Positions 3,832 through 38,263 of a stretch of DNA of 64,000 nucleotides are shown here, in pieces. The translations under genes and the position numbers were made by a program. The stretch lies in the IMG/VR virus record IMGVR_UViG_3300031716_000007, positions 7,075 through 71,074 of that record, one strand, 5' to 3'. The stretch comes from a virus (Duplodnaviria > Caudoviricetes). The notes under the pieces were generated by a model, which worked only from the letters and a program-made list of their open reading frames with translations, did no database searches and had not been told where the DNA came from. The first letter of the stretch is position 1. Every line of letters starts with the position of its first letter.

Positions 3832-5949
3832 TTAGGCCACGCTTAATCTCATTGTAAAATCTGTTCCGTTTAAAGGTAGGGTTGCTCCGAATGCTGAACT
3901 GTTTACTGTAAAATAATACAATTGCCCTACATATACATTTGCACCGAAAACAATAGCAGCTTGATTATTACCTGCGGTATTAGTTACCAACGCCGTTTGA
4001 TCAGAATCAATGATACTGTCAACAGCAGCCATTAAATCAACAGACATGTATATGTTTCCGTCGGATGGATGATTATTAGCTGCAATATTAATAGTGAGCG
4101 TTCCATTTTTAGGAGCTCTCCATTTATACCAAACGCTTCTTATGACATACATTTCACATGGTTCACCCAATTCATAGTTCGCAGCAATTGTTGTCCCTCG
4201 GCGAACGATAAGGGTATTGTCACCAAGATCAATAGCATTATCAAAATCATTATTCGATGGTCTATCTCCAAATGTAAAATGAAGCTTATATGGTCCTCCG
4301 GGAACTATTGATGAAGTTGTGCTGACCGATGCAAAAGCTATATAATATGTGACTCCAACAGAAGCATAGAAGCTGATTGCGCTTGTTTGTTGGATGTTGG
4401 CGCCACTACTCTTAATGACAGGAACTAAATTTGTCAATGCTGTTCCTGTGTAAACAGCGACAACACAATACCTGAATCCTCCATGAATTTCGGTAAATGA
4501 TGGGACATAAAAAGACATCTCACCATTTTTAGTTGGTGTAAATTTATACCAAACAGTCTTTCGATTAACATATCCAGCGACATTAGATGCGTGATTAGGC
4601 TCATCTGTTTCGACACTTGCCCCAGACAAATCTCCTTCTAACAAAGAGAATGTCGTGCCTAAATCATTTAAGACATTTGAGATTTCTTGCGCATTAGCGA
4701 AATCATCATTACTTGGTCTTTGGAACTGAGTTAAGAACATTGTGAATTCAGCATCCGTAGGGGAAGAAGCATGGCTGATTTGTATTTTATATTCTTGTCC
4801 AGCGACGACGTTCATAATGAAATGGTAATTATTATCAAAAGACACTTGAGTGTATCCGACCTGCGTTAAGCTACCGACGGCCGATCCGGTATAAAAGACA
4901 ACCCATAATGTTTGGTTAGAAGGGAGAAGATATAATAATTTGAAATCAACTGAGCCTGTTCTTGGCGCTGTCCATTTGTACCATACCGTATCAGACAATC
5001 CTTGAAACGGCTCCCCGCCTTCAAGCGTTGCGCCAATAGTGTTTCCTGAAAATATTATGGCATCGTTAGAGCCTAAATTAATTGCATTTGAAAAAGCGTC
5101 ATTGGATGGTCCTCCGCTTTGTGATGATGAAGAACTCGACGACGATGAGCTCGATCGCGATGAGCTTGAGAAAGATGAGCTTGAACTCGATGAGCTGCTC
5201 GATGACGATGAGCTTGAACTTAATGAACTGCTTGAGCTAGAAAATGAAGAGCTGCTCGATGATGATGAAGAGCTTGATTGTGAAGAACTTGAAGAAGAAA
5301 GAGAGCTTGAGCTTGATGAGGAAGACGAGCTGCTAGATGAACTTGATGAAGATGAGGAGTTTCCTCTTTCTGGAATATAATTATCGAATCGAACTTCTTT
5401 TAATGTCATTCCAGTATTGAGCAATTGATAGAAAACTAATTCGCGGCTGAGCTTGTCGTCCTTGAATCTAACCTTAAAATAATATTCGTAAGTTACTTTA
5501 ATAGCTCCTGAAGATGGCGCTGAATTAAAATCGATATAAGATTTCTCGTTCTCTTCATCATTGGTAAGCACATATCCCGTGTTTGCAACATTATTAACCG
5601 TACACGAATTATTGGCAGCAGTATCTACAGGAAACCTCTTTAAGACGAATCTAGTTTTGCTACCATCGGCGGTGCCAACAGGATCGTTAGTTTCCATAAA
5701 TTCTGTTGGAATTTTTACGAGAAAATCTTCATAAGATCCTTTTCTTGCAATAAAGAAGTCCCAAATCAAATTAATTGAGTCTTGGGATAAAAACTTTATT
5801 GTCAATTTATATTCTCGTATTGTCGCCGGCCATCTTGCCGCGCGATATTCTGGACCGATTGATTGATGGTCAGAAACGTTTGTACGAAAGAGCGCCGTCT
5901 CTTCAATCCCGAATTCTGGTGTTAAATCTAGTATTCTGTCAGTTAGCAT
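3832..5949 (-). CDS. DUF2460-like distal tail protein paralogue B1: Dit domain, ~85-residue poly-Ser, three P(S)ND.F.NA repeats
   Basis: N-terminus is paralogous to 7836..9932. Three repeats of PSND.F.NA..L...G...GA..E.GEP...VWYKW/F resemble bacterial surface-protein beta-sandwich domains. Confidence 0.75.
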   Translation of the reverse strand: MLTDRILDLTPEFGIEETALFRTNVSDHQSIGPEYRAARWPATIREYKLTIKFLSQDSINLIWDFFIARKGSYEDFLVKIPTEFMETNDPVGTADGSKTRFVLKRFPVDTAANNSCTVNNVANTGYVLTNDEENEKSYIDFNSAPSSGAIKVTYEYYFKVRFKDDKLSRELVFYQLLNTGMTLKEVRFDNYIPERGNSSSSSSSSSSSSSSSSSSSLSSSSSSQSSSSSSSSSSSFSSSSSSLSSSSSSSSSSSSSSSSFSSSSRSSSSSSSSSSSQSGGPSNDAFSNAINLGSNDAIIFSGNTIGATLEGGEPFQGLSDTVWYKWTAPRTGSVDFKLLYLLPSNQTLWVVFYTGSAVGSLTQVGYTQVSFDNNYHFIMNVVAGQEYKIQISHASSPTDAEFTMFLTQFQRPSNDDFANAQEISNVLNDLGTTFSLLEGDLSGASVETDEPNHASNVAGYVNRKTVWYKFTPTKNGEMSFYVPSFTEIHGGFRYCVVAVYTGTALTNLVPVIKSSGANIQQTSAISFYASVGVTYYIAFASVSTTSSIVPGGPYKLHFTFGDRPSNNDFDNAIDLGDNTLIVRRGTTIAANYELGEPCEMYVIRSVWYKWRAPKNGTLTINIAANNHPSDGNIYMSVDLMAAVDSIIDSDQTALVTNTAGNNQAAIVFGANVYVGQLYYFTVNSSAFGATLPLNGTDFTMRLSVA

Positions 5950-7835: not shown

Positions 7836-9932
7836 TTAAGCTACGGTTGCTTCTAATAAAAAGTCACCGCCGTAATCGGTGTCATTACAGGCAATCTGAA
7901 TAAAATAAGTGTATCCTGTATAAATTTTAGGATATGGTGAATTAAACGCATTTAAGTTACCGCTGGAATCTGGCCCAGCCCCAGGAGAATAAGGGAACAA
8001 TCGACTAATAGGAATGCCGTCATATCCGACGAAAATCATTATTCCAAGTGTTGTAATGTTGGGATCCCACTTAATATTAATGACTTGATTACCTGTCCGA
8101 GCCGGTCGCCATTTATACCAAACACTATTATTTAATGTCCCTGATGAAAACGGTTCTCCCATTTGATCTGAAGCATTAATATTTGATCCTCGAACAACAG
8201 CATGAGTCACATCGCCTAAATCATAAGCATTGGCTAAGTTATCATTGCTTGGTTGTCGCCCATATGAATATGCAAAATTAAAATTCCAGACCTTAGATGT
8301 TGTCGATATATTTGATCCCGTCGCGATTGCGATATAATATGTCGTTCCTAAATTCGCAATGAAAGAAATGCTTGTTGTACTTAAAGTGCTTTTGGCAACA
8401 GCGACTAATCCAGCAAGAGTGGTTCCTGTGTACGCCGCAATAAAAATACCCCCTCCGGACTGATCTGGGATTGGATCAGTATACGTTCTAATATTGAATG
8501 AAACTCTTCCCGAGGCTGGTGCGACAAATTTATACCAGACAGAAAACAGGTTATTATAACTAGATTCATTACTGGCATGATTAGGCTCACTTGTCTCTTT
8601 ACTTGATCCAATAAGCGTTCCGGAGACACTATAGCTGCCTGTGCTAAGATCATTAAGACCATTGGCTAAAACAATGGCATTCGCAAAATCGTCATTCGGC
8701 GGTTTTGCATTCATTGTGAAACTTAACGTAAATTGCAATTCATCCGCCGGAGATGAGTTAAATGAAACAACCTCAAATTTATATTCTTGTCCAGCCGTTA
8801 CAGCAAAGCGTCTTGGCCCAAATCCTCCGCTGCCATGAAAATCTGTATGATAAATAAATGTCAACCCTGTAAGCGTTGTGCCAGTATAAACATAAACATC
8901 AATATTGAAATTTCCATGATTGCCTGGATTAAGAACATCCATTTCTAATTGTCCGCTACGCGGAGCCGTCCAGCGATACCAAACGGTTTTTCTGCCATTA
9001 TTAGGATCATTGGCTTCATCTGTTGCGCCTATGGTATTACCATTAATAATAATAGCGTCAACAGATCCCAGGTTTGTTGCATTGGCAAAAGTATCGTTAG
9101 ATGGGCCGCCACTCTGCGATGAAGAAGAGCTGCTCGAGGATGAGCTCGATAATGACGAACTGCTCATTGACGAACTTGAACTCGATGAGCTCGACGACGA
9201 TGAAGAGCTTGAGCTACGAGATGAAGAAGAGCTTGAAAACGAAGAGCTACTAGATGATTGTGAAGAGCTGCTTGATGAAAATGAGCTTGAGCTATTTGAT
9301 GAGGAAGAGCTCGACGATGAAGAAGACGAGCTGCTTGAATTTCCTATGTCTGGATTGTAAGTATTGAAGCGGACTTCTTTTAATGTCAATCCAGTGTTAA
9401 GCAACTGATAAAAGACAAACTCTCTGGTTAATTTGTCGTCTTTAAACCTAACTTTAAAATAGAACTCATAACTAACCTTAATAGCTCCTGAAGATGGCGC
9501 TGAATTAAAATCGATATAAGATTTCTCGTTCTCTTCATCATTGGTTAAGACATAATCAGTATTAGCAATATTATTGACGGTGCATGAATTATTTGCAGCG
9601 GTATCAACGGGGAATCTTTTTAATGTAAATCTTCTTGTGCTGCCATCCGCAGTGCCAACATTCTCAAGTGTTTCGCTATATTCAGTTGGGATTTTAACTA
9701 AGAAATCTTCATAAGAACCTCGTCTAGCAATGAAAAAATCCCAAAGACTCTGCATCGCTGAGTCAGAAGCATATCGTATACTTAATTTATATTCTCTTAA
9801 AGAAGCGGACCAACGTTGGACTCTATATTCGGGGCCTATGGACTGATGATCAGAAACATTCGTGCGGTAAGTTGATATCTCTTCGATACCGAACTCTGGC
9901 GTGATGTCTAATATACGGTTGAACAATGACAT
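7836..9932 (-). CDS. DUF2460-like distal tail protein paralogue B2
   Basis: Same architecture as 3832..5949; lies directly downstream of the tape measure gene, the canonical Dit position. Confidence 0.75.
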   Translation of the reverse strand: MSLFNRILDITPEFGIEEISTYRTNVSDHQSIGPEYRVQRWSASLREYKLSIRYASDSAMQSLWDFFIARRGSYEDFLVKIPTEYSETLENVGTADGSTRRFTLKRFPVDTAANNSCTVNNIANTDYVLTNDEENEKSYIDFNSAPSSGAIKVSYEFYFKVRFKDDKLTREFVFYQLLNTGLTLKEVRFNTYNPDIGNSSSSSSSSSSSSSSNSSSSFSSSSSSQSSSSSSFSSSSSSRSSSSSSSSSSSSSSSSMSSSSLSSSSSSSSSSSQSGGPSNDTFANATNLGSVDAIIINGNTIGATDEANDPNNGRKTVWYRWTAPRSGQLEMDVLNPGNHGNFNIDVYVYTGTTLTGLTFIYHTDFHGSGGFGPRRFAVTAGQEYKFEVVSFNSSPADELQFTLSFTMNAKPPNDDFANAIVLANGLNDLSTGSYSVSGTLIGSSKETSEPNHASNESSYNNLFSVWYKFVAPASGRVSFNIRTYTDPIPDQSGGGIFIAAYTGTTLAGLVAVAKSTLSTTSISFIANLGTTYYIAIATGSNISTTSKVWNFNFAYSYGRQPSNDNLANAYDLGDVTHAVVRGSNINASDQMGEPFSSGTLNNSVWYKWRPARTGNQVINIKWDPNITTLGIMIFVGYDGIPISRLFPYSPGAGPDSSGNLNAFNSPYPKIYTGYTYFIQIACNDTDYGGDFLLEATVA

Positions 9933-12882: not shown

Positions 12883-13380
12883 TCATCCTCCGTTTATTTT
12901 CTTTTTTGTTTTTACGCCTTTTTTCATCAAGGCGTTGATGTATCGTTGTGTTCTTTCTTCAATCCACTTCTCTGTTTCACGTGAAACTCCTAAGAAGCGT
13001 CGCGCGACGCGAGTGATATTATTAACGCCCTCTTCTTGTTGGTAATAACCAATTAAATCCCGTGGCGGCCGGCCAAGAGCTTTAATTCCGGTAATATATG
13101 ACGCTGTGGCTTGTTTGAAAACGTGAATGGAATTAAACAGGATTCCCTTATCAATCAAGGGCTTTGTGGGCGTTGAGGATCGATTGGCGCGTTTATTCGC
13201 GATCGTTTTCTTAGCGAGGGCTTGCATTTTTGTTCCATCAACTTGTGTCTCGGTTCGAATATTTTTCTGCGCGTCATTTTTAATTTTATCAGCGATCTCC
13301 CGGATCAGCGGGTCCATTGCCGTCCGGGAGAAATCTGGAACTTCTCGTTCAAAGGTTATTCCAACTTTTATCAGTCCCAT
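12883..13380 (-). CDS. Virion morphogenesis / tail completion protein (Mu gpG-like family)
   Basis: PLIDKGILFNSI and VARRFLGVS motifs. Confidence 0.7.
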   Translation of the reverse strand: MGLIKVGITFEREVPDFSRTAMDPLIREIADKIKNDAQKNIRTETQVDGTKMQALAKKTIANKRANRSSTPTKPLIDKGILFNSIHVFKQATASYITGIKALGRPPRDLIGYYQQEEGVNNITRVARRFLGVSRETEKWIEERTQRYINALMKKGVKTKKKINGG

Positions 13381-13384
13381 AGTT

Positions 13385-14404
13385 TTATGTACTGCTAGAG
13401 CTAGAACTTGAAGAACTAGAAGATCGTGAGCTTGAAGAGCTAGAACTCGATGATGATGTCCCGAAGAACAATGTCATTGAATCGTTGCCCACAGAAATAT
13501 CGTTGCTCAAAATTTCCATGTTCGCATTCAAAGCTCTTAATCCACTTCGATCAGCTTCCGTGATTCCTGTAAATCGTGTTTTAGGAAGAGACAATTCCAT
13601 CATGTTTCCATTAGAATCGTTGATCCTAATTGAAATTGATGCGACTGTCCCGTCAAGCATTTTGCTATAAAAATCAAAATCAGATTTAGCTACTAACTCA
13701 GGATCGAATGTAATGACCGGACGACGATTAACGATCTTGGCATAATCAATACCGCTGGCATCAGATGGCAATGGAGATAAGACAATCTCATTTTGCATGT
13801 CTAATTCAAGGGTATCAATGACCAAGATGCTGCCATGAATTTGAACCGTTGCTCCCATAAACATCAAAGGAACTTGGTTTGGATACGTCGGAGAAAGCAT
13901 CGACTCATCCAAATGAGAAGCATACTTACCCTGCATGGTAAAATCACACATGACAGGCTCGCCGACTTTATACATAAACTTAACGTTACCGCCAACGCCT
14001 AATATTGTCTTTGTGAAACCATCTTCAAATTTTTTACATGTCATGGTTTGAAAACTTGAAGAAATTGGCGTAAACGTATTAGAAACGCTCGCTACAAGCG
14101 CCTCAGATAACCCGCAAGCCTTTAAAAACGGAGAAATGGGTAAGGTCGTCCCTTTGCTACCAGAAGGCGGACCCATCAACTCAGCTTTAAAGTTTAAATT
14201 CGCTTGGCGCGCACCTGTTTCGGATTTTAGCTTATCCATATGTTTAAGAACTGGATTACGCTGAAATACCGCAGGTACGATATCTAAGACAGGTTCATAA
14301 GCCAAAATTGTTGCTTCTGATGCTGTTATCGTTTCAGCGGAACCGCTGGTGGTTTCAATTTTACCTGCTAGTTGGGCAATCCTCGTTCTTTTTGAATTAA
14401 CCAT
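13385..14404 (-). CDS. Major tail (tube) protein with C-terminal S10-R-S11-T tail
   Basis: Size, beta-rich sequence, and position between the terminator gene and the chaperones; poly-Ser end read directly. Confidence 0.75.
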   Translation of the reverse strand: MVNSKRTRIAQLAGKIETTSGSAETITASEATILAYEPVLDIVPAVFQRNPVLKHMDKLKSETGARQANLNFKAELMGPPSGSKGTTLPISPFLKACGLSEALVASVSNTFTPISSSFQTMTCKKFEDGFTKTILGVGGNVKFMYKVGEPVMCDFTMQGKYASHLDESMLSPTYPNQVPLMFMGATVQIHGSILVIDTLELDMQNEIVLSPLPSDASGIDYAKIVNRRPVITFDPELVAKSDFDFYSKMLDGTVASISIRINDSNGNMMELSLPKTRFTGITEADRSGLRALNANMEILSNDISVGNDSMTLFFGTSSSSSSSSSSRSSSSSSSSSSST

Positions 14405-14417
14405 GTAACTAATCCTC

Positions 14418-14831
14418 CTATTTGTTTTTCCTTAAATCAAACAATGTTCCTCGATAAGTAAACTTAGCAAGGCCAGTCCATCCTTCTTTCACATCGGTGT
14501 GATACAAATCTTTTGACACTTCTAAACCAAATGTCCAGTTGTCGGTAATCTGAACTAAATCCGGGGCATCAATATCTGCGCCATAAACGTTTTTCTCAGC
14601 TGAAACTTCTGTCACGTTGGTCACATCTGTGACATTGGTTGTATTGTTATTAACAGTAGTATTATTATTGACGGTCGTGTTGTTGTTAACGATAGTTGTT
14701 TTGTTCTTACCTTTTCCTTTACCGACGTGCTCATGGCCATGATCCGCATGTTCGCTATGTCCCTCGTCGCCAATACCAACACCGTAAAAACTTAAGACCA
14801 TGATTAAAATTAAAACTAACTTTTTCATCAA
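14418..14831 (-). CDS. Exported protein with signal peptide, His-rich patch and (TTVNNN)n repeats
   Basis: MMKKLVLILIMVLSFYGVGIG signal-like N-terminus; GHSEHADHGHEH; three TT(I/V)VNNN-type repeats; aromatic beta-strand C-terminus. Confidence 0.6.
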   Translation of the reverse strand: MMKKLVLILIMVLSFYGVGIGDEGHSEHADHGHEHVGKGKGKNKTTIVNNNTTVNNNTTVNNNTTNVTDVTNVTEVSAEKNVYGADIDAPDLVQITDNWTFGLEVSKDLYHTDVKEGWTGLAKFTYRGTLFDLRKNK

Positions 14832-15211
14832 TTACTCCTTTGCTCTTTAGGAAGTTTTTCCATTATTTTTTCTAGAAACGTGCTGATCTGCCTGAAATCA
14901 TTTTTGATTTCATTGATATCTGATTTAATCCCCTCAATTTGAATCTGAGCGATTTCTTTTCTATAAAACTCATCATTGACGTATTTATAGTCCGGCTTAT
15001 TTTCTATTGTTTTTTCCAAGATCTCGATTTCTTTCTTTGAGTCTTGATACGATCTATTGAGGTTATCCATTGATGATTTAAGTGAATCGATAACTTTCCC
15101 CAAAGCCGTTACAACTTCGTTTGATTTGTCGATTTTTCCTAATAAATACATAAAACCGCCGACAGATACACTGGCGATTCCACCTATGGCCCACTGAACC
15201 CAAGATTCCAT
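14828..15211 (-). CDS. Membrane-anchored coiled-coil protein (holin- or spanin-like candidate)
   Basis: Single N-terminal hydrophobic helix (WAIGGIASVSVGGFMYLLG) followed by heptad coiled coil. Confidence 0.45.
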   Translation of the reverse strand: MESWVQWAIGGIASVSVGGFMYLLGKIDKSNEVVTALGKVIDSLKSSMDNLNRSYQDSKKEIEILEKTIENKPDYKYVNDEFYRKEIAQIQIEGIKSDINEIKNDFRQISTFLEKIMEKLPKEQRSN

Positions 15212-15669
15212 TATAAAAATCCCCTTTCTCTGACCGATAATTTAATCTCAACTACATGACACAAAACGTCACCTAGTTGGCCGAAAGAAATTTCACCTGT
15301 AATCGGGATATTTATAATCTCAGCTGTGCCATTTAAATCTTGGTTTCGAATGAACAAATCGGTTATAGAATCAACCAATGTATCGAATGGTTTTTCTGAG
15401 GATGGATCGTCTGTGAATGCATAAAAACCGCGTATCACCAAATTATGAACGGTATCTTTGACCTTACCGGCCGTGGCTTGGCTTCCTCGAGGTTCTACTA
15501 CAAGAGCATTACGTTGAATTTCCCATTCATTAACTTTGGAATTTTTTACAAAGAGCTGCTTATATGTTCCCCAATCAGAAGAATAACGTTTGTAATCGTA
15601 AACCCTTCCAATCCCGGTTACACTCTCTAACAAAGTTTTTAATTGTGCGCGTATCGTTGTCAGTGGCAT
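15211..15669 (-). CDS. Tail terminator / head-tail joining protein
   Basis: IRAQLKTLLESVTGIGRVYDY N-terminus and LCHVVEIKLSV end resemble tail terminators; position fits. Confidence 0.6.
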   Translation of the reverse strand: MPLTTIRAQLKTLLESVTGIGRVYDYKRYSSDWGTYKQLFVKNSKVNEWEIQRNALVVEPRGSQATAGKVKDTVHNLVIRGFYAFTDDPSSEKPFDTLVDSITDLFIRNQDLNGTAEIINIPITGEISFGQLGDVLCHVVEIKLSVRERGFL

Positions 15670-15732
15670 AGCTGCCTAAGTGAATTATCTCTGCCTTTTT
15701 AGAACTAATCTTCGTCATTGGAGAAGGTTTGA

Positions 15733-16461
15733 TCAACGAGTGAAAGATGGATGAGTCAAATAATCGCCTAGACCGCCAGGATAGCGCAAGTCATAGTCCT
15801 TAATTGACACTCCGGCGGATGCCGCTGATAATGCGTCCTTCTTCGATCCGATACCCATCAAAGATCTATACATGTCCATCTTTTGCAGGGCTAATTCTTT
15901 ATAAATATCGGACTTTCTTGCATAATCAATGACATCGGCCTCAATCGTTGAGTCTGAATGTTGCGCGAATCGCGCCGCTAGAGCCCAATAACAAAGACCC
16001 GCTGCCAGTGCTAAAACAGCGTTTGAATCATTATCTGTAATCGTACACGTCGTTGTGTTAAGCGTGTGTTTTGCTGCATAGGTAAATCTCGCTTTAATAC
16101 CCGACGCTGGAACAAAAGTTTTAAATCTTAAATATAATGTTGTGACTGTTAAAACAAGCTTCTTAATTAACTGCCAATCTTCACTCTCTAGAAATGTTTG
16201 CGCTTGTACAGTATCATCTACGGGATATTCAATAGCTCCATCAATATACGAAAAATTCTCAACCCAATCAGACGGCATCGCAAAATCAAACGTTGATCCA
16301 TCGCCAGTAACTTCATAAACTTTAACCAATGGTCTATCTTTGGAAAAAATTAAAACAGCCTGATTCAAGAATATTTCATTGTCGTCAGGCTGTAAAAATT
16401 CTCCAACATCTTGAAGCATCCGGTCCAGCCGGACTAAGTAATCATCCCGATCCATTGTCAT
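15733..16461 (-). CDS. Head-tail adaptor / connector protein
   Basis: Position after the capsid genes; helical ends flanking a beta-rich core. Confidence 0.55.
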   Translation of the reverse strand: MTMDRDDYLVRLDRMLQDVGEFLQPDDNEIFLNQAVLIFSKDRPLVKVYEVTGDGSTFDFAMPSDWVENFSYIDGAIEYPVDDTVQAQTFLESEDWQLIKKLVLTVTTLYLRFKTFVPASGIKARFTYAAKHTLNTTTCTITDNDSNAVLALAAGLCYWALAARFAQHSDSTIEADVIDYARKSDIYKELALQKMDMYRSLMGIGSKKDALSAASAGVSIKDYDLRYPGGLGDYLTHPSFTR

Positions 16462-16470
16462 TTAAATGCC

Positions 16471-16779
16471 TCATAATAAATAAATAAAAACTTTATCACC
16501 GGAACCAAGACCGCTATTAATAGCGCTGGCGTCAAAAAATAAACCATGAGGAAATGGTTGCCCGTTTCGTCCAAAGTCAATTTCGTTATCTAAATTCGCA
16601 TTTTGATTAACGCGAATTCCTTCATTTGCTGTATCCGCTTGACCATGCAACAAAGATAAAACATCACCATCGGCCGCAGAAAATAATTTAACTTTCTTAA
16701 TGGTCAATGGTCCCGGAATAGCAAAATCTGTGTCGAAAGTGTCTAGGAGAATCGGATTTGTATTTAAATTGTTTGACAT
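16471..16779 (-). CDS. Hypothetical virion protein
   Basis: In the head-tail block with compact spacing. Confidence 0.45.
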   Translation of the reverse strand: MSNNLNTNPILLDTFDTDFAIPGPLTIKKVKLFSAADGDVLSLLHGQADTANEGIRVNQNANLDNEIDFGRNGQPFPHGLFFDASAINSGLGSGDKVFIYLL

Positions 16780-16796
16780 TTTAACTCCTTCAATAT

Positions 16797-17063
16797 TTAA
16801 TCGTCACTATATTGTCTTCCATCATTCGATTCATTTAACTCTTCGGATTCCACAGATTTCTCAATGGAGCTCATGGGTTCTATCGAAATAATATATCGAT
16901 TCGCATAAGCTTTATCTAATCCGGGGAAGGCTCGACCAATATTGACACAATCTAAAAACTCTTGAAGAATTTTTCCGTTCGCCATATTGATCATGTGCCA
17001 TTCGTCTCTGCCTTCCACCCATTTCATTATTACTGGTAGTCTTACTTTCTTTTTTTGCTCCAT
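16797..17063 (-). CDS. Hypothetical protein
   Basis: GAG-type RBS and operon position. Confidence 0.45.
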   Translation of the reverse strand: MEQKKKVRLPVIMKWVEGRDEWHMINMANGKILQEFLDCVNIGRAFPGLDKAYANRYIISIEPMSSIEKSVESEELNESNDGRQYSDD

Positions 17064-17080
17064 TACGCATCTCTTAGTTT

Positions 17081-17575
17081 TTAAGTGCTAGAACTAGAGC
17101 TTGAGCTCGACGAGCTTGATCGTGAACTAGAGCTAGAGCTAGAACTTGAAGAGCTTGAACTCAAAGAACTCGACGATGAAGAAGAAGAGCTAGAACTTGA
17201 GCTTGATGCTCCCGTTGAAGCCGTAACATTAGGAGATAGTGCATACCAGTTATAATTTCCTGAGCTATCTTTCCCGCACCAAAAATCAGCCGTCTCACCT
17301 TGACTATTTTGAACTATATTAAAACTGCTACCTCGACCAGCAAAACCCGCTGAGACAAAAACGTATCCTTGATCCAATGTAAAGACGCGGACCGTAACAC
17401 CCCATAAATCTTTATCAGCTGCCGGTAAGGTTAATTTTGCAAAACTGGAAAGAGAAATGAATTGATATCCGATGTTAAGGATATCGTCTTTTGTGAGGCT
17501 ATAATTTGCGGATTTTTCAAGAAACCGTCCAAACTTATTAGCTGCTTGATATTTAAAACGAGTACGTTTACTCAT
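17081..17575 (-). CDS. Putative capsid decoration protein, paralogue 2, with C-terminal ~45-residue poly-Ser ending R-S11-T
   Basis: Clearly paralogous to 17654..18076 (F.YQAAN.FG...YSLTK..IL..GYQFI.LS....LTLPAAD.DL.G.T.RV.TL.QGYV...ETADFWCG). Confidence 0.55.
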   Translation of the reverse strand: MSKRTRFKYQAANKFGRFLEKSANYSLTKDDILNIGYQFISLSSFAKLTLPAADKDLWGVTVRVFTLDQGYVFVSAGFAGRGSSFNIVQNSQGETADFWCGKDSSGNYNWYALSPNVTASTGASSSSSSSSSSSSSSLSSSSSSSSSSSSSRSSSSSSSSSSST

Positions 17576-17592
17576 TAATTCCCCCTTATAAT

Positions 17593-17652
17593 ATTAAGCA
17601 TTTTTCAGCTTAAAAGCTGTACTCCGGGATAAACATTCCCGGAGCCATCGCC
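17593..17652 (-). ncRNA. Conserved two-hairpin RNA element, copy B
   Basis: GGCGATG-G-CTCCGGGA(ATGTTTA)TCCCGGAG-TACAGCT-TTTAAGC(TGAAAAAT)GCTTAAT; shows compensatory changes relative to copy A. Confidence 0.6.
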
Positions 17653-17653
17653 G

Positions 17654-18076
17654 TTAGGTAGATGAGGAACTCGATGAACTTGAGCTCGAGCTTGAAGAAG
17701 ATGATAAAGAACCGTCGGTGCCGGTTACATTAGGTGATAAAGCGTACCACGCATATGAACCACTGCTTGCTAATCCGCACCAAAAATCTGTTGTCTCACC
17801 ATCGCTATTAATTACAGTGTCAAAAGATCCGCCACGATTACCGAACCCAGCTGCAACCTTGACATAACCTTGACCTAATGTAACAACGCGAATAGTAATC
17901 CCGGCCAAATCTAAATCAGCGGCCGGTAAAGTTAAAGCTCCAAGATCAGATAGTTCAATGAATTGATATCCGTCTTGGAGAATATTTGCTTTCGTAAGGG
18001 AATAAGCAGCTCTAACGCGTAATGTGTTCCCAAATCTATTTGCTGCTTGATACTGGAAATCTGATTTCTTTGGCAT
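17654..18076 (-). CDS. Putative capsid decoration protein, paralogue 1, ending L-S15-T
   Basis: Immediately downstream of the major capsid gene; paralogous to 17081..17575. Confidence 0.55.
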   Translation of the reverse strand: MPKKSDFQYQAANRFGNTLRVRAAYSLTKANILQDGYQFIELSDLGALTLPAADLDLAGITIRVVTLGQGYVKVAAGFGNRGGSFDTVINSDGETTDFWCGLASSGSYAWYALSPNVTGTDGSLSSSSSSSSSSSSSSST

Positions 18077-18096
18077 TGCATTCTCCTCTTGTTAAC

Positions 18097-18155
18097 ATTA
18101 AGTATTTTTCAACTTAATAGCTGTTCCCTGGGGATTTCTCCCCAGGGTCATCGCC
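18097..18155 (-). ncRNA. Conserved two-hairpin RNA element, copy A
   Basis: GGCGATG-A-CCCTGGGGA(GAAA)TCCCCAGGG-AACAGCT-ATTAAGT(TGAAAAAT)ACTTAAT, directly after the capsid stop codon. Confidence 0.6.
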
Positions 18156-18163
18156 AATTAATA

Positions 18164-25570: not shown

Positions 25571-28500
25571 CTAGCTTGAAACTTGTTGGAAAAATTGAAA
25601 ATTAAATGTTTGGTCTTCAAAATACATATTTCTGCGCGCCGAGAAAGAAGAACTGCTTGAACTCGATGAGCTTGAGCTTAATTGAGATGACGAACTTGAT
25701 GATGAGCTCGAAAAAGACGAGCTCGATGATGAACTTAAACTTGATGAGCTCGAACTAGAAGATTGTGAGCTTGATGATGAAGAACTAGATAAACTTGAAC
25801 TCGACGATGATGAGCTGGATGATGAAGAACTTGAAAATGATGAACTAGATGAACTGCTAAATGAGCTACTTGAACTAGATGAGCTTGATGAGCTAGAGCT
25901 AGACAATGAACTAGATGAGCTTGAGCTCGACGATGAAGAGCTTGAGCTTGAAGATGATGATAAACTCGATGATGAAGAGCTTGATGAAGACGAACTTGTT
26001 AGTGATGAACTTGACGATGATGAGCTCGATAATGAACTAGACGAACTTGATAGTGATGAGCTCGACGAAGACGAACTGCTTAATGATGAACTGCTTGACG
26101 ATGAGCTTGACAGTGATGAACTCGATGATGACGAGCTGCTCGACGATGAACTTGATAATGAAGAACTCGACGAAGAAGAGCTTGACGAGCTCGAAAAAGA
26201 GCTGCTAGAACTAGACGAGCTTAATGAAGAAGAGCTGCTCGAACTCGACGAGCTTGATGAGGATGAACTTGATGAGGATGAACTTGTGTAATCTATGCCA
26301 AAATTACCTACATCATACCATCCTAATTTATATGTTGAGCCATTTGCTCCTGAATATATAATCTGGGTCCTACCAGACATGATCGCCTGTAACCCATCAC
26401 CATAATGAACATAACACGCCCTATAGCATCCATCTTGATCCCATGTTCCTGTCCCGCCAGTGATCTTGACGCTTCCACCCGACCATGTAATTCCGTCGCT
26501 AGAAGTGTATTCCCATATATGAATTTGATTGTCACTAATTCTTACCCTCAAACAAAGTAAATGATAAACTCCTCCATTATCGATAGTCACATCAAAATGC
26601 CCGGCGCCGTAATAATACGTTGCATTCTTAGCCGGAGCAAAAATTGGATTACTTGCGCTACGTTGAAAATTCTCTATAACATTCGTGGAATTGTTCCATG
26701 TAAATGTTGCCAGACCCATTTGTCCGACGTTGTTTGTAAGCCCACCATCTTCAGAATCCGCAGCATTACCTGTCGTTTCTCCATACCATAAATAAAACGT
26801 CCCATTCTTAAAAATCATCGTCGGATATTGAGTGTGCGCATGAGTTGAGTCAAACTTTTCCCATGCTTGTCCTCCCGAATCCAAACCACTTAAAATAATA
26901 GGATTGGTATTTCCATTAATCGCGGTCCCTGTATACCAATTCCACGTAATGCCATCATTAGACCATCCAAAAGCAAGAGCATGATTACATGCGCTTGGCG
27001 CAGCTCCACTCGATCCACTAATTCTTGGAGCAACAACCATAAACCACTTATCATATTGAGGGACATATAAAATATCTGGATCAGCATCAAAGGTCCATCC
27101 AAAATCAGCTTTACCATCAAGAACTGGGTTAGATATAGTCGGACTGGAAGCTTCCCAATTCTGTCCATCATTACTTGTTTCAATAAAATATTCTTCATCA
27201 GCATCCGCAGGGTATGGTGTAAACACTAACCACAATTTCTTTCCGGACTTCCCACTCGGGAAGAAAATACAGTCTGGGTGAAGAACACTATCGTTGCCAT
27301 TATTGCTTAATGGATTCGTATAGGTTAATGATGAACTTGAACTTGAGGAGCTGCTTCTTGACGAACTTGAACTCGATGATGAAGAGCTTGATGATGAACT
27401 TGATGAGCTACTTGTGGACGAACTTGAGCTTGAAGAACTGGATGAAGAAATACTGGAACTTGAAGAACTGGATGAAGAACTGCTAGAACTCGATGAGCTT
27501 GAAGATGAAGAACTGCTCAATGATGAACTAGAAGATGAAGAGCTGCTCAATGATGAGCTAGAAGAGCTAGAACTCGACGATGATGAACTGCTTAACGATG
27601 AACTAGAGCTCGAAGAGCTGCTCAATGATGAACTTGAAGATGAAGAGCTTGATGACGATGAGCTTGACGATGATGAGCTTGCCAACGAAGAACTAGATGA
27701 TGATGAGCTTGACAAAGATGAGCTTGAGCTTGAAGAGCTTGAAACTGAAGTCGATGAACTAGAACTCGAAGAACTGCTTAAGGAAGAGCTCGAAGAAGAA
27801 GAGCTAGAACTCGATGAGCTGCTTAATGAAGAACTTGAGCTCGATGAACTGCTCAGTGAAGAACTTGACGATGATGAACTCGAGCTTGAAGAACTGCTTA
27901 ATGATGAACTAGACGAGCTCGACGATGATTTAGAAGAACTTGAACTTGATGATGAGCTGCTTGAGGATGAGCTAGAAGAAGCCGCAGAAAAATCACCTGC
28001 TGACCAATTATCAATAGTTGGAGTTGTTGAAGAACTGTCAGTCTGGGTTATAAATCCACATCTTAAATTTCCAGTTATAGAAGAATCGGTTATCGTAAGC
28101 CTGGAAACACCAGCTACAAAAAATTCCAGATTAGACCCACTAACTGTTAATTTTATTGTGCATGGAGAAGTTAGTGTTCCACTGGTGTCTGGTCCATTAA
28201 GATTTGAATAGGTGCCAGATACGCATTTTTCAATTCTTAAACGATCATTTGGTTGACTATAACCATTATAATCTCCTACATAAAAAGTTTCTGCTGAACT
28301 GCTAAATCTAACGCAAGCCCCTCCTTGACTTGAATTATTAGCGCTTAAAAATGAAGCTACATCAAGTTGACAATAATGATCGCTTGTTGATAAATCCGAT
28401 TCTGCCCTACATGATTTTGTTGATCCACTCGCCCATACCTGAGTTGCTTTGTTACTAACTACTTGATGGTCCCCTAAGACTTCTGCCCAGGTTAAATCTG

Positions 28501-29180: not shown

Positions 29181-32100
29181 CTATGTTTGATCTACAAAAT
29201 CATGAAGATAAGTTTGATCAAAGAAAACAAGATCATCAGTTTCATTATGGAATATAGATTCAAATGGTAACGACGACGCAGACTGAGAGCTTGAACTCGA
29301 TGAGCTGCTGTACAGAGAACTTGAGCTTGAGCTATTTGAATTTGAACTAGAGCTTTGCGAGCTAGACGAGCTTGAACTAAATGAACTAGAACTTGAACTT
29401 GAAAAACTAAAAGAAGATGAGCTTGAGCTCGATGAACTAGAAGATGAAAGGCTCGATGACGATGAACTCGAAAGTGACGACGATGAGCTCGAACTGCTGG
29501 AACTCGAAGAACTAGAACTTGATGAGCTTGACGACGACGAACTGCTTAATGAACTGCTTGAACTAAATGAACTGGATGATGACGAACTAGAAAATGAAGA
29601 GCTCGATGAAGATGAGCTAGAAGATGACGAACTGCTTTGAGAAGAACTTGATGAGCTGCTTAATGAGGAACTCGAAGACGACGAACTCGATGATGATGAG
29701 CTTGACGATGAAGAACTCGATGAACTTGAGCTCGAAAGCGACGAACTAGACGATGAAGAACTCGACGATGATGAGCTTGATAGCGATGAGCTTGAGCTCG
29801 ATGAACTGCTTAATGATGAACTTGAAGATGAAGAACTCGATGATGATGAGCTCGCAACAGAAGAACTAGAACTCGATGAACTACTTTGTGAGCTGCTTGA
29901 GCTTGAAGAACTGCTCAGCGATGAACTTGAACTTGATGAACTGCTCGAGGAAGAGCTTGACAATGAAGAACTGGATGACGATGAACTGCTCGACGATGAG
30001 CTTGATAATGAAGAACTGGATGACGATGAACTGCTCGATGATGAACTTGATAGCGAAGAACTGCTTGATGATGAGCTTGACAATGAAGAACTTGATGACG
30101 ATGAACTGCTTGATGATGAGCTCGATAATGAAGAGCTTGATGATGATGAGCTCGACGAGCTAGAACTTGATAATGAGGAGCTCGATGACGATGAACTTGA
30201 AGAAGAAGAACTGGATAACGACGAACTACTTGATGATGAGCTTGACGAACTCGAACTTGATAATGATGAACTCGATGACGACGAGCTTGATAATGACGAG
30301 CTCGAAGATGATGAGCTTGATAATGACGAACTCGAAGATGATGAACTTGAGCTTGATGAACTGCTTAGTGATGAACTTGAACTTGAAGAGCTGCTCAGTG
30401 ATGAACTGGAACTCGATGATGAAGAACTCGACGAGCTACTTAAAGATGAGCTAGAACTCGATGAGCTACTTAAAGATGAACTGGAACTCGAAGAGCTGCT
30501 TAATGAAGAACTTGACGATGAGCTCGAAGAACTTGAAGAGCTGCTTAATGACGAGCTTGAGCTAGAAGAGCTACTCAGTGATGAGCTAGAACTAGATGAT
30601 GAAGAACTCGACGAGCTGCTTAATGAAGAGCTGGAACTCGATGAGCTGCTTAAAGACGAGCTAGAACTTGAAGAGCTTGAACTCGATGAGCTGCTTAATG
30701 ATGAGCTAGAACTTGACGAGCTTGAAAGCGAAGAACTGGATGATGAAGAACTCGATGACGAAGAACTGGATAATGATGAGCTGGAACTCGAAGAGCTACT
30801 TAATGATGAGCTTGAACTTGATGATGATGAGCTCGATGAACTCGACGAGCTTGATGAACTCGTCTGCACATTTGATACAACATAAGAAACAAGTTCCGTA
30901 TGTGTCCCCGCAATCGCGGCCGATTGCGTAACTTTAGTATCTAAATAATCTCCATCAGAAATCGTAATACTTGCAGTGCTAAACCCAGTCGTATTCGGAT
31001 CCGTTACAGTTAAAGCAAGCCCTGTGTCTGAACCATTCTTTTGAAGCGTATAAGTTTTGCTTTTACCGCCTCCAAATGCCCCACCAATTAAAGCAACTTG
31101 AATGCGCGTAACATAACAATTATTCGATAACTCTAAACGATTTGTTGATGTCCCAGCTCCACCCGATCCAACGTCGCATCCATTGACCGGAAGATAATAT
31201 GTGGCCCCTGTCGCAACTGACCAAAGACCTTGAGCCATAATAGGGAATTCATCTGCGTTGTCTGGAACAAAAACCCATCCAATAATAGGAACATCTGCCG
31301 TCGGTGTATTTGTCGGTCGATATTGAAACGAAATAATATCGCCAGCAACAACAGTAAAAGAATGCGTTGTATCAGATGCAATTGTGTTTAAGTCCGCTAG
31401 ATTTGCATGGAGAGCTGTATCAGAGCCATTCTTACGAAACACTAAATCGTAACTTTTTCCAGATCCAGGTGCCACGGTATCTTGAACATACAAATCTCTA
31501 ATGGTCCCCGGACATGGAATAACAATCTGAGCAAACGTCTCTAAAGATTCCCATCCAAAAGATCCTACTGGCGCGCCAAAATCTCCTTGCGCATTTGACG
31601 GATTACCATGAGAAGCATAAAAACCGCAATATTTACTATTAAACGCATTAAAATCAATGGCCCAAATTGCTGTGCAAGCTGTAGGCGTCGATGATGGTGA
31701 AGCTTTTAATGTGACTGTATCTCCGGCCGCTACTGCAAAACTATGCGAAGTATCTGCCCCTGTCGTATCAGAATCAGATATCGTTATTGTAATCCCCGTC
31801 GCTACATCATTCTTTAAAACAGCGAATGTCCAACTCTTGCCGGATCCAGGCGCCGCGGAGAGGCGGACTCTAAAATTCTTAAAATCTCCTGATGTCGGAA
31901 TTAAATTACGAGCGTAATTATCTAAAGAAGAATTCCAAAAACCAGATGCGTTATTTAAAAGAAACGCATATTGATCAATCGTATTATCAAGAGTCTCCGT
32001 CGATAAACCAGAAACAACGACTTGTCTCGTCGTTGTTTGAGAAGAGCTTGAACTTGAACTAGAAGAACTGCTCAACGATGAACTACTTGAAGAAGAGCTT

Positions 32101-36356: not shown

Positions 36357-37350
36357 CTGTATCTCCTGGTCCTATCACATCCAAATATCCGTGATCTTTT
36401 TCTGGATGACGATAATTTTTATGTTCTATTTTGATTTTCCAATCAAGCATTTTTCTAAATCTTTCATAAAGACATTCCATAGCCCCGCGCGCAATATTAT
36501 CCGAAGCTAATAACGATTCGCCGCTGGCTTTTAAATATCCTTTTGCACAACCACTTCTATTATTTAACTGACAATTGCGCCATCGCGGATGATAGAACTG
36601 GCCATGATAACTATACATGGGGGTCCCTGTCTCGGTCTTGAGCGATCCAAAATCGCCTACGACGCGTTGATAGGGCTTTAGGTTCTGTTCATTGGTCCCG
36701 AGCCATTGCACGTTAGGAAGGCCAATAGTACGACCTTCAGCGCCATACTGAGACAATTTTAATTGGATCGCAGCCATATCCGGCCCCTTAAAGTTCTCTG
36801 TTGGAAATCCATCGATAAACATCTCATAACTCTCGCGCATTGCTTGTCCCCAAATCTTCGCATCAACAAAAAGCGGACAATTGCAAAGATCCATTTCAGG
36901 AACGAATCCTTCTGGCATGATCCATTGCCCTTTATGCTGATGATGCGGATCATAATAAGATTGTTTCTGTTCTTTAACAGCGCACAAAACTAATCCTGTC
37001 TTTGCCGCAATTTCAAAGAAGTTCTTCGGATCTCTGACAAAAACCATGTCAGCATCAAGAACGCATACAGCATCATAATCTTTACCGATTTGATCTGCGT
37101 AGAAATATCGTTTCCGACATAAGACTTCAGACAGACCATGAGATTCTTGGACTTCATCGTCGGTGATATTATGAAAAATAACTTTAAAACCTAAAGATGG
37201 AAGCTGGTCTATGACTGCTTGCGGGATCTGATATCCATACCAATGCAAATCCGCCTTGTTGCCAACATAATCAAGGCTATTAATCTCAGCAATGGCCTCG
37301 GGCAGATAACGAAGATCACAGCACATTACAAAAGCGTATTTATTTTCCAT
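36349..37350 (-). CDS. GT8-like (GT-A fold) glycosyltransferase
   Basis: RKRYFYA...VCVLDADMVF DxD motif, later PDM and HYH-like SYHG. Confidence 0.65.
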   Translation of the reverse strand: MENKYAFVMCCDLRYLPEAIAEINSLDYVGNKADLHWYGYQIPQAVIDQLPSLGFKVIFHNITDDEVQESHGLSEVLCRKRYFYADQIGKDYDAVCVLDADMVFVRDPKNFFEIAAKTGLVLCAVKEQKQSYYDPHHQHKGQWIMPEGFVPEMDLCNCPLFVDAKIWGQAMRESYEMFIDGFPTENFKGPDMAAIQLKLSQYGAEGRTIGLPNVQWLGTNEQNLKPYQRVVGDFGSLKTETGTPMYSYHGQFYHPRWRNCQLNNRSGCAKGYLKASGESLLASDNIARGAMECLYERFRKMLDWKIKIEHKNYRHPEKDHGYLDVIGPGDTDA

Positions 37351-38263
37351 AGACTCCTCTCATCCATTCAATTGTTTTCTCAATACCTTCTTCTAAGGTA
37401 ATTTTTGGGTCGTGGTTTAAAAGTTTTTTTGCTTTCTCGATAACCGGCCTTTTATTTGTAACATTGTGCTTATCAATTTCTTTAAGCACCATTAAGCTTT
37501 CCGGCTTACCTGCACATTTTAAGACGATACGAGCAAGGTCCTCAACAGAACGATATTCCGTCCCTCCGATATTAATAACTTCACCGTCTTTAAATCTCTC
37601 ACAAGCATTGGCCAGCGTCGGTATGAAATCGTCAATATACATAAAAACACGATGATAATCCTTGTAGACTGTAAAAGGAATATCATGAAGTGCTTGATAA
37701 CAAAAAAGACAGCACACTGATCGATAATTCGTAAAATTCTCCCCCGGTCCATACGCATTAAAAAATCGAAGAATCTCAATTTGGTTTTGATACCGATCAC
37801 GAAAGTTTTTAATCTGCATCTCATTGACCAATTTAGAAATCGCATAATCGTTATGCAATCTCCCGTGCTCCATATCCTCGGTAATATATTCTGCCGTCAA
37901 GTCACCATAAATCTCAGAACTCGACGCATGAATCATTTTAAAACCTAATCTTTTCTGAACTTCGAGCAAGTTGCGCATACCAATAACATTGCTCTTCCAG
38001 CATTTTTCATAAAATTCTTCGCCATTAATACGACCAAATTCAGCTGCAAGATTCAATACAACGTCTGGGCTAAAACTAAAATCATCATGCATGCGTTCAA
38101 ACGCGACCAAAATCTGTCTTATCTCACTAATATCGCATCGTAATTCGCGTGGATTGTTAGAGTGTTTTAAATCAAGGCCAAACACCTCATGTCCACGTCG
38201 ATTGAGCTCTTGCACTAAAGGTTTACCAAGCGTTCCATTTGATCCTGTTACTAAAATTTTCAT
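37340..38263 (-). CDS. NAD-dependent NDP-sugar epimerase/dehydratase/decarboxylase (extended SDR)
   Basis: VTGSNGTLG, NLAAE, HASSSEIYGD, YAISK, RFFNAYGPG. Confidence 0.92.
   Translation of the reverse strand: MKILVTGSNGTLGKPLVQELNRRGHEVFGLDLKHSNNPRELRCDISEIRQILVAFERMHDDFSFSPDVVLNLAAEFGRINGEEFYEKCWKSNVIGMRNLLEVQKRLGFKMIHASSSEIYGDLTAEYITEDMEHGRLHNDYAISKLVNEMQIKNFRDRYQNQIEILRFFNAYGPGENFTNYRSVCCLFCYQALHDIPFTVYKDYHRVFMYIDDFIPTLANACERFKDGEVINIGGTEYRSVEDLARIVLKCAGKPESLMVLKEIDKHNVTNKRPVIEKAKKLLNHDPKITLEEGIEKTIEWMRGVYGK

Follow-up and report, generated by a model that had tools for sequence, protein, structure and literature searches.

The ending shared by two unrelated virion proteins of this phage, an arginine, exactly 11 serines, a threonine and the stop codon (R-S11-T-stop), is best read, with slightly better than even confidence, as the end of Ser/Thr brushes that were added on to virion-surface proteins, are selected at the protein level, probably accept sugars from transferases of the phage and carry a phage-specific end-cap; that they are glycosylated is what we infer. 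The identical endings would mark the C-terminal boundary of polyserine appendages on outer particle proteins in a clade of soil siphophages. Besides the T5-pb6-like tail tube, the probable bearers are the two paralogues of a capsid-attached anchor protein, four DUF2460 proteins of the distal tail and a pair of giant, fibre-like proteins. The window, meaning the whole 64,000-nucleotide stretch analysed here, belongs to a 71-kb phage, and its relevant features are listed in Table 1.

Translation and codon listing showed that the tail tube protein ends in ...FFG-T-S10-R-S11-T-TAA and the decoration-like paralogue 2 in A-S14-L-S13-R-S11-T-TAA, confirming the common R-S11-T-stop of the original prediction, as well as the L-S15-T-TAA ending that it gave for paralogue 1. 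Its description of the two R-S11-T proteins as non-homologous also holds, since the cores of the tube and paralogue 2 show no relatedness (BLASTP E = 1.8). The tube passed the Pfam cut-off for Phage_tube_2 (PF18906, 1.1e-8, 35.5 bits against 27), and Foldseek matched its AlphaFold model to 8xan (3e-11), 8ed0 (4e-10) and the T5 tube (6e-8). This model has an overall pLDDT of 73, falling below 50 across residues 319-336. T5 pb6 carries a further domain after its second tube domain, and this sits outside the tube. The serine tail follows the equivalent point of the model, therefore it should be external. The model of paralogue 1 has a pLDDT of 80 with a tail predicted to be disordered, and its core resembles the Pa223 capsid spike and the N-terminal anchor domains of tailspikes (Foldseek 1.3e-4). 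A word-seeded database search with this core returned a single match, a close orthologue (P0030) that ends in L-S11-R-S9-T. The major capsid subunit, an 851-aa protease-capsid fusion, ends in ...FAAGIVA with no tail, whereas the adjacent accessory paralogues bear tails.

Table 1. Features of the window discussed in the text (positions are those of the window)
Feature	Position	Strand	Evidence or detail
S11 unit R-S11-Q, end of internal tract, 705-aa DUF2460 protein	5122..5154	minus	
S11 unit L-S11-Q, end of internal tract, 698-aa DUF2460 paralogue	9117..9149	minus	
Tail tube protein, 339 aa, T5 pb6 / P74-26 double-domain type	13385..14404	minus	Pfam Phage_tube_2 and Foldseek
Tube tail S10-R-S11-T	13388..13456	minus	S10 13427-13456, R 13424-13426, S11 13391-13423, T 13388-13390
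Paralogue 2, capsid-proximal and decoration-like, 164 aa (122-aa core and 41-aa tail)	17081..17575	minus	Translation, family alignment
Paralogue 2 tail S14-L-S13-R-S11-T	17084..17206	minus	S11 17087-17119, R 17120-17122, T 17084-17086
Paralogue 1, 140 aa	17654..18076	minus	Translation; tail L-S15-T at 17657-17707
S11 unit QL-S11-F, end of second tract, 1199-aa protein	25646..25678	minus	
S11 unit L-S11-Q, end of second tract, 1342-aa protein	32040..32072	minus	
Candidate GT8-like glycosyltransferase, 333 aa	36349..37350	minus	Pfam Glyco_transf_8 9e-5, 22.6 bits, cut-off of 24.3 narrowly missed
NAD-dependent sugar epimerase/dehydratase	37340..38263	minus	Pfam Epimerase 7.6e-38
Candidate GT-A glycosyltransferase, 245 aa	39158..39895	minus	PHROG 14945 'glycosyltransferase' 8.7e-11

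Polyserine occurs in at least 10 late ORFs on the minus strand of the phage. The tracts are composed of pure serine runs of 9-24 residues interrupted by single Leu, Phe, Arg or Gln residues, most of which are Leu or Phe, and in 6 of 10 tracts the final run comes directly after Arg or Lys. Near-pure polyserine amounts to 15-40 residues in the tails and to hundreds of residues in other proteins. Of the 10 multi-unit polyserine tracts of the phage, 7 end in a run of 11 serines, internal linkers included. For the 9 multi-unit tracts that lie within the window, the last run is S11 in 6, as opposed to only 3 of 102 non-terminal runs (Fisher 2.9e-6), which argues against chance; the seventh S11-closed tract, R-S11-N, lies just beyond the window. 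After the internal S11 units, the next residue is Gln, Phe or Asn and then a folded domain follows, indicating that S11 is not a C-terminal feature because it also ends internal linkers. A serine run joining two folded modules is seen only in the internal tracts, and the tracts of the tube and both paralogues reach the stop codon. Neither an LPXTG sorting motif nor a hydrophobic ssrA-type degron (LAA) is present at the C-termini here or in relatives, and no tRNA genes were found.

The C-termini of related tube proteins were compiled. The exact tail T-S10-R-S11-T is retained only in relatives at 79-86% identity (five homologues, P0002-P0005 among them). In homologues more distant than about 75% identity the run lengths differ, and the last residue is G, A, D, K, S, V or W, or poly-Thr is used instead. 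A Ser tail of 14-37 aa is present in every one of the 22 full-length homologues that reach at least 57% identity, and those at 42-45% identity have Thr/Ser tails. In the wider tube family, a tail was found in only 2 of the best 148 representatives (4973 matches), both belonging to the near clade, and the rest of these 148 end immediately after the last strand. Tail-less relatives have no Ser/Thr runs. In the deep clade, the change from Ser to Thr was made jointly by all tail-bearing proteins of a genome. A metagenome scan returned a single locus (L058) and a genome scan a single MAG contig (L059), labelled 'uncultured bacterium'. The terminal Thr had been suggested as a possible glycosyltransferase priming site, which fails on the more distant homologues, whose last residues mostly lack an acceptor hydroxyl. 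What the original prediction named as refuting it, random tract lengths and terminal residues among homologues, is thereby half borne out. By these sequences a universal "S11-T priming site" is refuted, and S11-T is a habit confined to one phage lineage rather than a general signal.

The last residue is coordinated between proteins of the same phage. When unrelated tail-bearing proteins were paired within each of 35 dereplicated genomes, the last residue was the same in 43 of 98 pairs compared to 16.6 +/- 3.5 expected (0 of 5000 shuffles, with a shuffle null that ignores phylogeny), and in 14 of 22 pairs compared to 3.9 expected when dereplicated at 70% or lower. The three tails of the window phage are all capped with T and those of a sister phage (L001) with G and G, while cap forms in relatives include G, xSA, TK, TST and ESS. 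Caps are mixed in L011, L015, L038 and L043, so cap concordance is a tendency and not a rule. Coordination of run lengths across relatives is marginal (P 0.02-0.07). The coordination of endings among unrelated proteins of the same phage, seen across about 35 related genomes, suggests a shared constraint or reader. The idea of a recognised signal thus survives in the coordinated endings and the protein-level selection described below, but not as S11-T being specific and general.

Genes that could supply sugars to the tails lie in the same window. The candidate GT-A glycosyltransferase matched Pfam GT2 under the cut-off (0.0024) and PDB 5tze 'Glycosyl transferase' weakly (E 0.065), and two further polyserine phages (G001 and G003) encode homologues of the GT8-like candidate at about 60% identity. 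At the sequence level, the glycosyltransferase calls in the window are weak, with PHROG as the sole strong match. The further enzymes of the phage comprise five methyltransferase-domain proteins, a B12-radical SAM enzyme, an aminotransferase and a ThDP enzyme. When four candidate proteins of the sugar cluster were run with phmmer against PDB sequences, no usable match emerged, and a search of the genomes for PHROG 14945 gave no match anywhere, with the controls likewise unmatched. A poly-Thr relative (G004) encodes four clear GT2 genes, and a complete polyserine relative (G002) has only a sub-threshold GT1 match. No GT2 or GT8-like match was obtained in 5 records of tail-less relatives, a contrast drawn from few genomes and few queries.

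Taken together, these observations are consistent with the following scheme. The tails would be disordered and translated as written. Nearly every tract of the phage, internal or C-terminal, would end in exactly 11 Ser, often after Arg, and free tails would end in a phage-specific cap residue, which is Thr here. In the infected cell, transferases and sugar-tailoring enzymes encoded by the phage may add O-linked sugars or sugar-phosphates to the Ser/Thr hydroxyls, which would give a glycan brush on the tube and head. The cap and the length of the last run may be tuned to something common to all tails of a phage, such as the way in which the modifying enzyme deals with the end of the tract, or escape from host proteolysis that starts at the C-terminus. 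A bolder version, which we consider doubtful, is a 'tract-end code' in which the last-run length and cap would be read by a phage-specific enzyme that docks at the C-terminal tract boundary and works inward, so that caps co-evolve with the enzyme and address the glycan coat.

The identical endings could instead have arisen on DNA, through recent gene conversion, duplication or repeat slippage between tracts, or be a coincidence of low complexity. The tract DNA consists of degenerate 15/30/45-nt repeats, which favour recombination, and the longest words shared between tails are slightly longer within genomes than between them (11.7 vs 10.4 nt). However, in register the S11 units of the tube and paralogue 2 share just 21% identity, less than the null of 47%, in line with the original prediction that they use different synonymous codons, and S11 units as a set have a DNA likeness of 0.42 vs a null of 0.47, like random tract pieces. 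Both Arg codons are CGA, and the Thr codons of the three tails all differ (ACA, ACT and ACC). In relatives, identity of the last 15 nt is nearly the same within and between genomes (0.42 vs 0.41), pairs with a common last residue use the same codon in 14 of 35 cases, which is the chance level, and the flanks downstream of the tails are unrelated. Coincidence is further opposed by the enrichment of S11 as the last run. Two independent soil-metagenome contigs, X2 and X3 (X3 covering the stretch in part), have identical tails, therefore the endings are not an assembly artefact; the phage itself is present in four studies. In a diverged soil variant, X4, which also covers the stretch in part and spans only the paralogue 2 tail among the tails, this tract differs by 7 synonymous third-position changes with 0 nonsynonymous changes and 0 indels. 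A DNA-level origin is thus largely refuted and we regard it as highly improbable; the sequence comparisons support the conclusion that the identical endings are not a product of DNA copying and that selection acts on the protein, although older gene conversion followed by synonymous drift may be the source of the shared endings. A role of the cap as Shine-Dalgarno bases for the next gene, as in the GGA-TAA-n4-ATG arrangement of some tube genes, was considered and rejected as a general explanation, as the same caps precede long spacers and the Thr codons here give no Shine-Dalgarno sequence.

Among explanations at the protein level, the original proposal in its strong form would make R-S11-T-stop a discrete tag for glycosyltransferase priming, ligation or sorting, or docking, with one phage factor reading run length and Thr. 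Such a tag would account for the exact tail in close tube homologues, the three tails that reach Thr by three different codons, the coordinated endings within genomes of relatives and the enrichment, at the last run, of both S11 and a preceding Arg/Lys. We nevertheless consider it unlikely: S11 ending internal linkers is no mark of a free C-terminus, paralogue 1 has S15 and its close orthologue S11-R-S9, the last residues G, A, K, D, V and W of relatives are not O-glycosylatable, run-length coordination is marginal and a sortase- or ligase-type motif is absent. In a distinctly unlikely alternative, bare polyserine would act as an unmodified hydrophilic spacer or entropic bristle that prevents particles from sticking to soil matter or to one another and tethers distal domains, with no reader. 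Polyserine linkers (PSL) are established flexible spacers in the secreted carbohydrases of Saccharophagus degradans and Cellvibrio (Howard et al. 2004; PMC2386152), and the DUF2460 and giant proteins contain internal tracts that connect folded domains and resemble them in their long Ser runs, mixed TCN/AGY codons and flexible look; the predicted disorder of the tails fits as well. PSL join two folded modules of bacterial enzymes, whereas the tube and paralogue tails are free ends of virion proteins with coordinated caps. Bare spacers would also leave unexplained the shared caps within genomes, the joint switch to Thr, the large sugar-enzyme set of tail-bearing phages and the strict Ser/Thr-only make-up, which lacks the Gly, Asn and Pro common in passive linkers. 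Finally, the hydroxyls might be phosphorylated or phosphate-linked in a phosvitin- or phosphoglycan-like manner, with Arg before the last run as a kinase- or transferase-type determinant. Heavily phosphorylated polyserine proteins have Ser runs punctuated by Arg/Lys, which the Arg/Lys before 6 of 10 last runs resembles, but the punctuation here is mostly Leu or Phe and the ORFs scanned yielded no match to a kinase or phosphotransferase family, making this very unlikely.

Glycan brushes as preferred here would have partial counterparts in known systems. In mycobacteriophages, glycans are reportedly carried at the C-termini of capsid and tail-tube subunits. Virion O-glycosylation is described for the mycobacteriophages Che8, Corndog and Myrna (Freeman et al. 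2023, Cell Host Microbe 31:1216, as cited in PMC12363180). The phage studied here likewise has a C-terminal extension on structural subunits, including a Ser/Thr-bearing one on the tail-tube subunit. Its candidate transferases may correspond to the glycosyltransferases that the mycobacteriophages encode, and the sugars would coat the particle exterior. Its extensions differ in being near-pure polyserine with genome-specific end-caps and a fixed last-run length, in sitting on the tube, on tail-tip proteins and on an accessory protein of the capsid while the major capsid protein bears none, and in belonging to uncultured soil phages of about 40% GC that are unrelated to actinobacteriophages. Tubes of siphophages may also be decorated at the C-terminus by an Ig-like domain, as in T5 pb6 and lambda gpV. 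The serine tail resembles these decorations as an accessory element after the tube fold that would be displayed outside, but a disordered Ser tail replaces the folded Ig-like or FN3 domain. The serine-rich repeat glycoproteins of Gram-positive bacteria (Fap1, GspB) have Ser-rich regions to which dedicated transferases attach many O-linked glycans. The phage tails are similarly very Ser-rich, in contrast lacking the SxSx dipeptide repeats, accessory Sec export and LPXTG cell-wall anchor of those proteins.

No description of such phage polyserine tails was found in a full-text literature search. To our knowledge, virion glycosylation has been shown experimentally only for a few mycobacteriophages. 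If the preferred reading is true, such glycosylation would also occur in a lineage unrelated to them, on pure polyserine, an acceptor that is much more extreme. The coordination of endings on the level of protein rather than codons provides a concrete, testable handle on how a phage marks its proteins for modification or guards its disordered tails.

All late genes of this 71-kb virus record, which has direct terminal repeats and is mostly covered by the window, are held on the minus strand. Polyserine was found in at least 10 late ORFs, including those of four distal-tail paralogues of the DUF2460 family and of two giant proteins whose tracts reach 525 residues. Codon listing showed that the tail tube protein ends in T-S10-R-S11-T, paralogue 2 in S14-L-S13-R-S11-T and paralogue 1 in L-S15-T, each followed by TAA, and that the codon strings of the three tails are all different. 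The original prediction was correct, coordinates included, in that the tube and paralogue 2 share an identical R-S11-T-stop ending written in different codons. The cores of the two paralogues are 66% identical, and the predicted structure of the paralogue core is similar to a phage capsid spike and to the N-terminal domains by which tailspikes are anchored to the particle. Sequence comparison found no relationship between the tube core and the paralogue core.

Tail-bearing proteins compared at their C-termini and candidate sugar-related genes of the phage
Feature	Coordinates	Strand	Basis or setting
Tail tube protein	13385-14404	-	Pfam Phage_tube_2 match; AlphaFold model resembles double-domain tubes of SH-Ab15497, P74-26, DT57C and T5
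Paralogue 1	17654-18076	-	directly after protease-capsid fusion gene
Paralogue 2	17081-17575	-	directly after protease-capsid fusion gene
PHROG-class candidate glycosyltransferase			encoded by phage
GT8-like protein (candidate glycosyltransferase)			encoded by phage
Sugar epimerase			encoded by phage
Methyltransferase-domain proteins (n=5)			encoded by phage
B12-radical SAM enzyme			encoded by phage
Aminotransferase			encoded by phage
ThDP enzyme			encoded by phage

Several genomes (window 17081-18076 and the relatives' loci L009 and L011) retain the capsid-proximal anchor protein as two paralogues, with one tail short (15-17 Ser) and the other long (40 to ~100 residues). In the family members L032:29-1030 and L026:7278-8429, an extra folded domain of ~150 aa is tethered between two polyserine tracts, indicating that the same anchor can display a cargo domain. 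An adaptor-like ORF in three other relatives (L006:3018-3377, L007:8652-8999 and L008:4190-4537) ends after ~100 residues with an S14-16 tail; its window homologue (15733-16461) has 242 aa and no tail, and a polyserine insertion may have split or truncated the gene. A 137-aa ORF (14418-14831, minus strand) lying between the neck and tube genes has a hydrophobic N-terminus, a His-rich stretch and then three NNNTTV repeats followed by NVTDVTNVTEV, the repeats being rich in N-x-T sequon-like triplets.

DNA copying was rejected as the source of the S11 identity because S11 units are no more alike than random tract pieces: those of the tube and paralogue 2 share 21% identity in register, and the six S11 units of the window have a mean identity of 42%, compared with 47% for random pieces. 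The tails are reproduced exactly in independent soil contigs, and a variant diverged by ~3% has seven changes within the paralogue 2 tract, all of them synonymous third-position changes, with no indels. Across all Ser tracts of the window, AGY and TCN codons alternate above chance. These sequence patterns indicate that the tracts are translated and constrained as protein. AGY-AGY neighbours in these tracts number 66 against ~125 expected, and identical neighbouring codons make up 17% against 21% expected. Soil metagenomes of four studies contain the phage or near-identical strains (window 13300-18200), and the diverged variant comes from one sample.

The tract interiors are dominated by runs of 9 and 14 Ser with a single Leu between them. 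S11 is the last run in 7 of 10 multi-unit tracts, whereas 3 of the 102 runs inside tracts are S11 (Fisher's test, 2.9e-6, computed on window tracts alone); the last run follows a basic residue in 6 of the 10. Of the seven tracts that end in S11, five are linkers inside the protein, with Q, F or N and then a folded domain after them. Since most such tracts are internal, S11 is a tract-ending rule of this phage and not a mark of the free C-terminus. Just upstream of the window, an open frame of ~980 aa (L060, record G000:C1, 4259-7198, minus strand), read from stop to stop with no start set, carries a polyserine tract of ~170 residues ending in R-S11-N.

Tube relatives were collected as 28 database homologues and 57 viral loci. 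Those of 79-86% identity have T-S10-R-S11-T exactly. At 74% identity or less, tails vary from 14 to 37 residues, the punctuation varies and the last residue is G, A, D, K, S, V or W; relatives at 42-45% identity have mixed Thr/Ser tails. Searching 1.8 billion representatives with a profile yielded 4973 wider tube relatives, and only 2 of the best 148 have tails, both of them near-clade, the others ending directly after the last strand. Paralogue-family tails range from 11 to ~200 residues, and a close orthologue of paralogue 1 ends in L-S11-R-S9-T. These varied endings and the tail-less wider family refute a general S11-T signal, and the non-hydroxyl last residues (G, A, D, K, V, W) rule out a terminal Thr or other hydroxyl residue as a universal priming site. 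A deeper clade (L046-L053 and L056; record G004, 54-63 kb) has mixed Thr/Ser tails on tube and Dit-like distal-tail proteins.

The tail-bearing ORFs of all loci were grouped into tube, paralogue family, Dit-like, small 83-105-aa and adaptor-like proteins. Of 98 pairs of unrelated families within one genome, 43 had the same last residue (16.6 +/- 3.5 expected from family-preserving shuffles) and 26 the same last three residues (6.3 expected); the excess persisted after dereplication at 80% and 70% tube identity. Genomes with uniform end caps include the window phage (T,T,T) and its sister L001 (G,G), as well as L006, L009 and L041 (all G) and L002 (xSA four times); TST occurs three times with ESS once in L032, and TK on two families of a further clade. 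The Ser-to-Thr switch likewise hits all proteins of a genome together. Codon sharing among same-cap pairs (14 of 35) was not beyond chance, and sequence comparison across loci found tail DNA and downstream flanks of one genome to be no more alike than those of different genomes. In relatives, last-run lengths were only marginally coordinated, and several genomes have mixed caps; cap concordance is a tendency, not a law.

The T5 tube protein pb6 carries an external Ig-like domain at the point after the tube fold. The tube tail follows this site in the structure match, and so should be on the tube surface. The simplest interpretation is that the tails serve as acceptor brushes for O-glycosylation directed by the phage. 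Two other polyserine phages carry the GT8-like gene with 60% conservation, and four consecutive GT2 genes are present in the poly-Thr relative (G004, complete 63-kb genome). No S/T runs were found in tail-less relatives, and no GT2 or GT8-like match came from five of their records, of which two are nearly complete. On the O-glycosylation reading, the common cap and fixed last run would reflect one constraint shared by all tails of a phage, possibly the way an enzyme handles the end of the tract, or else a need to protect the tails from proteolysis at the C-terminus. To our knowledge, mycobacteriophages are the only experimentally shown precedent for phage-directed O-glycosylation, and a literature search found no description of such a polyserine-tail system. 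The analysis refutes a universal S11-T tag and adds a terminal-S11 rule of this phage and an end-cap concordance that is genome-specific and codon-independent.
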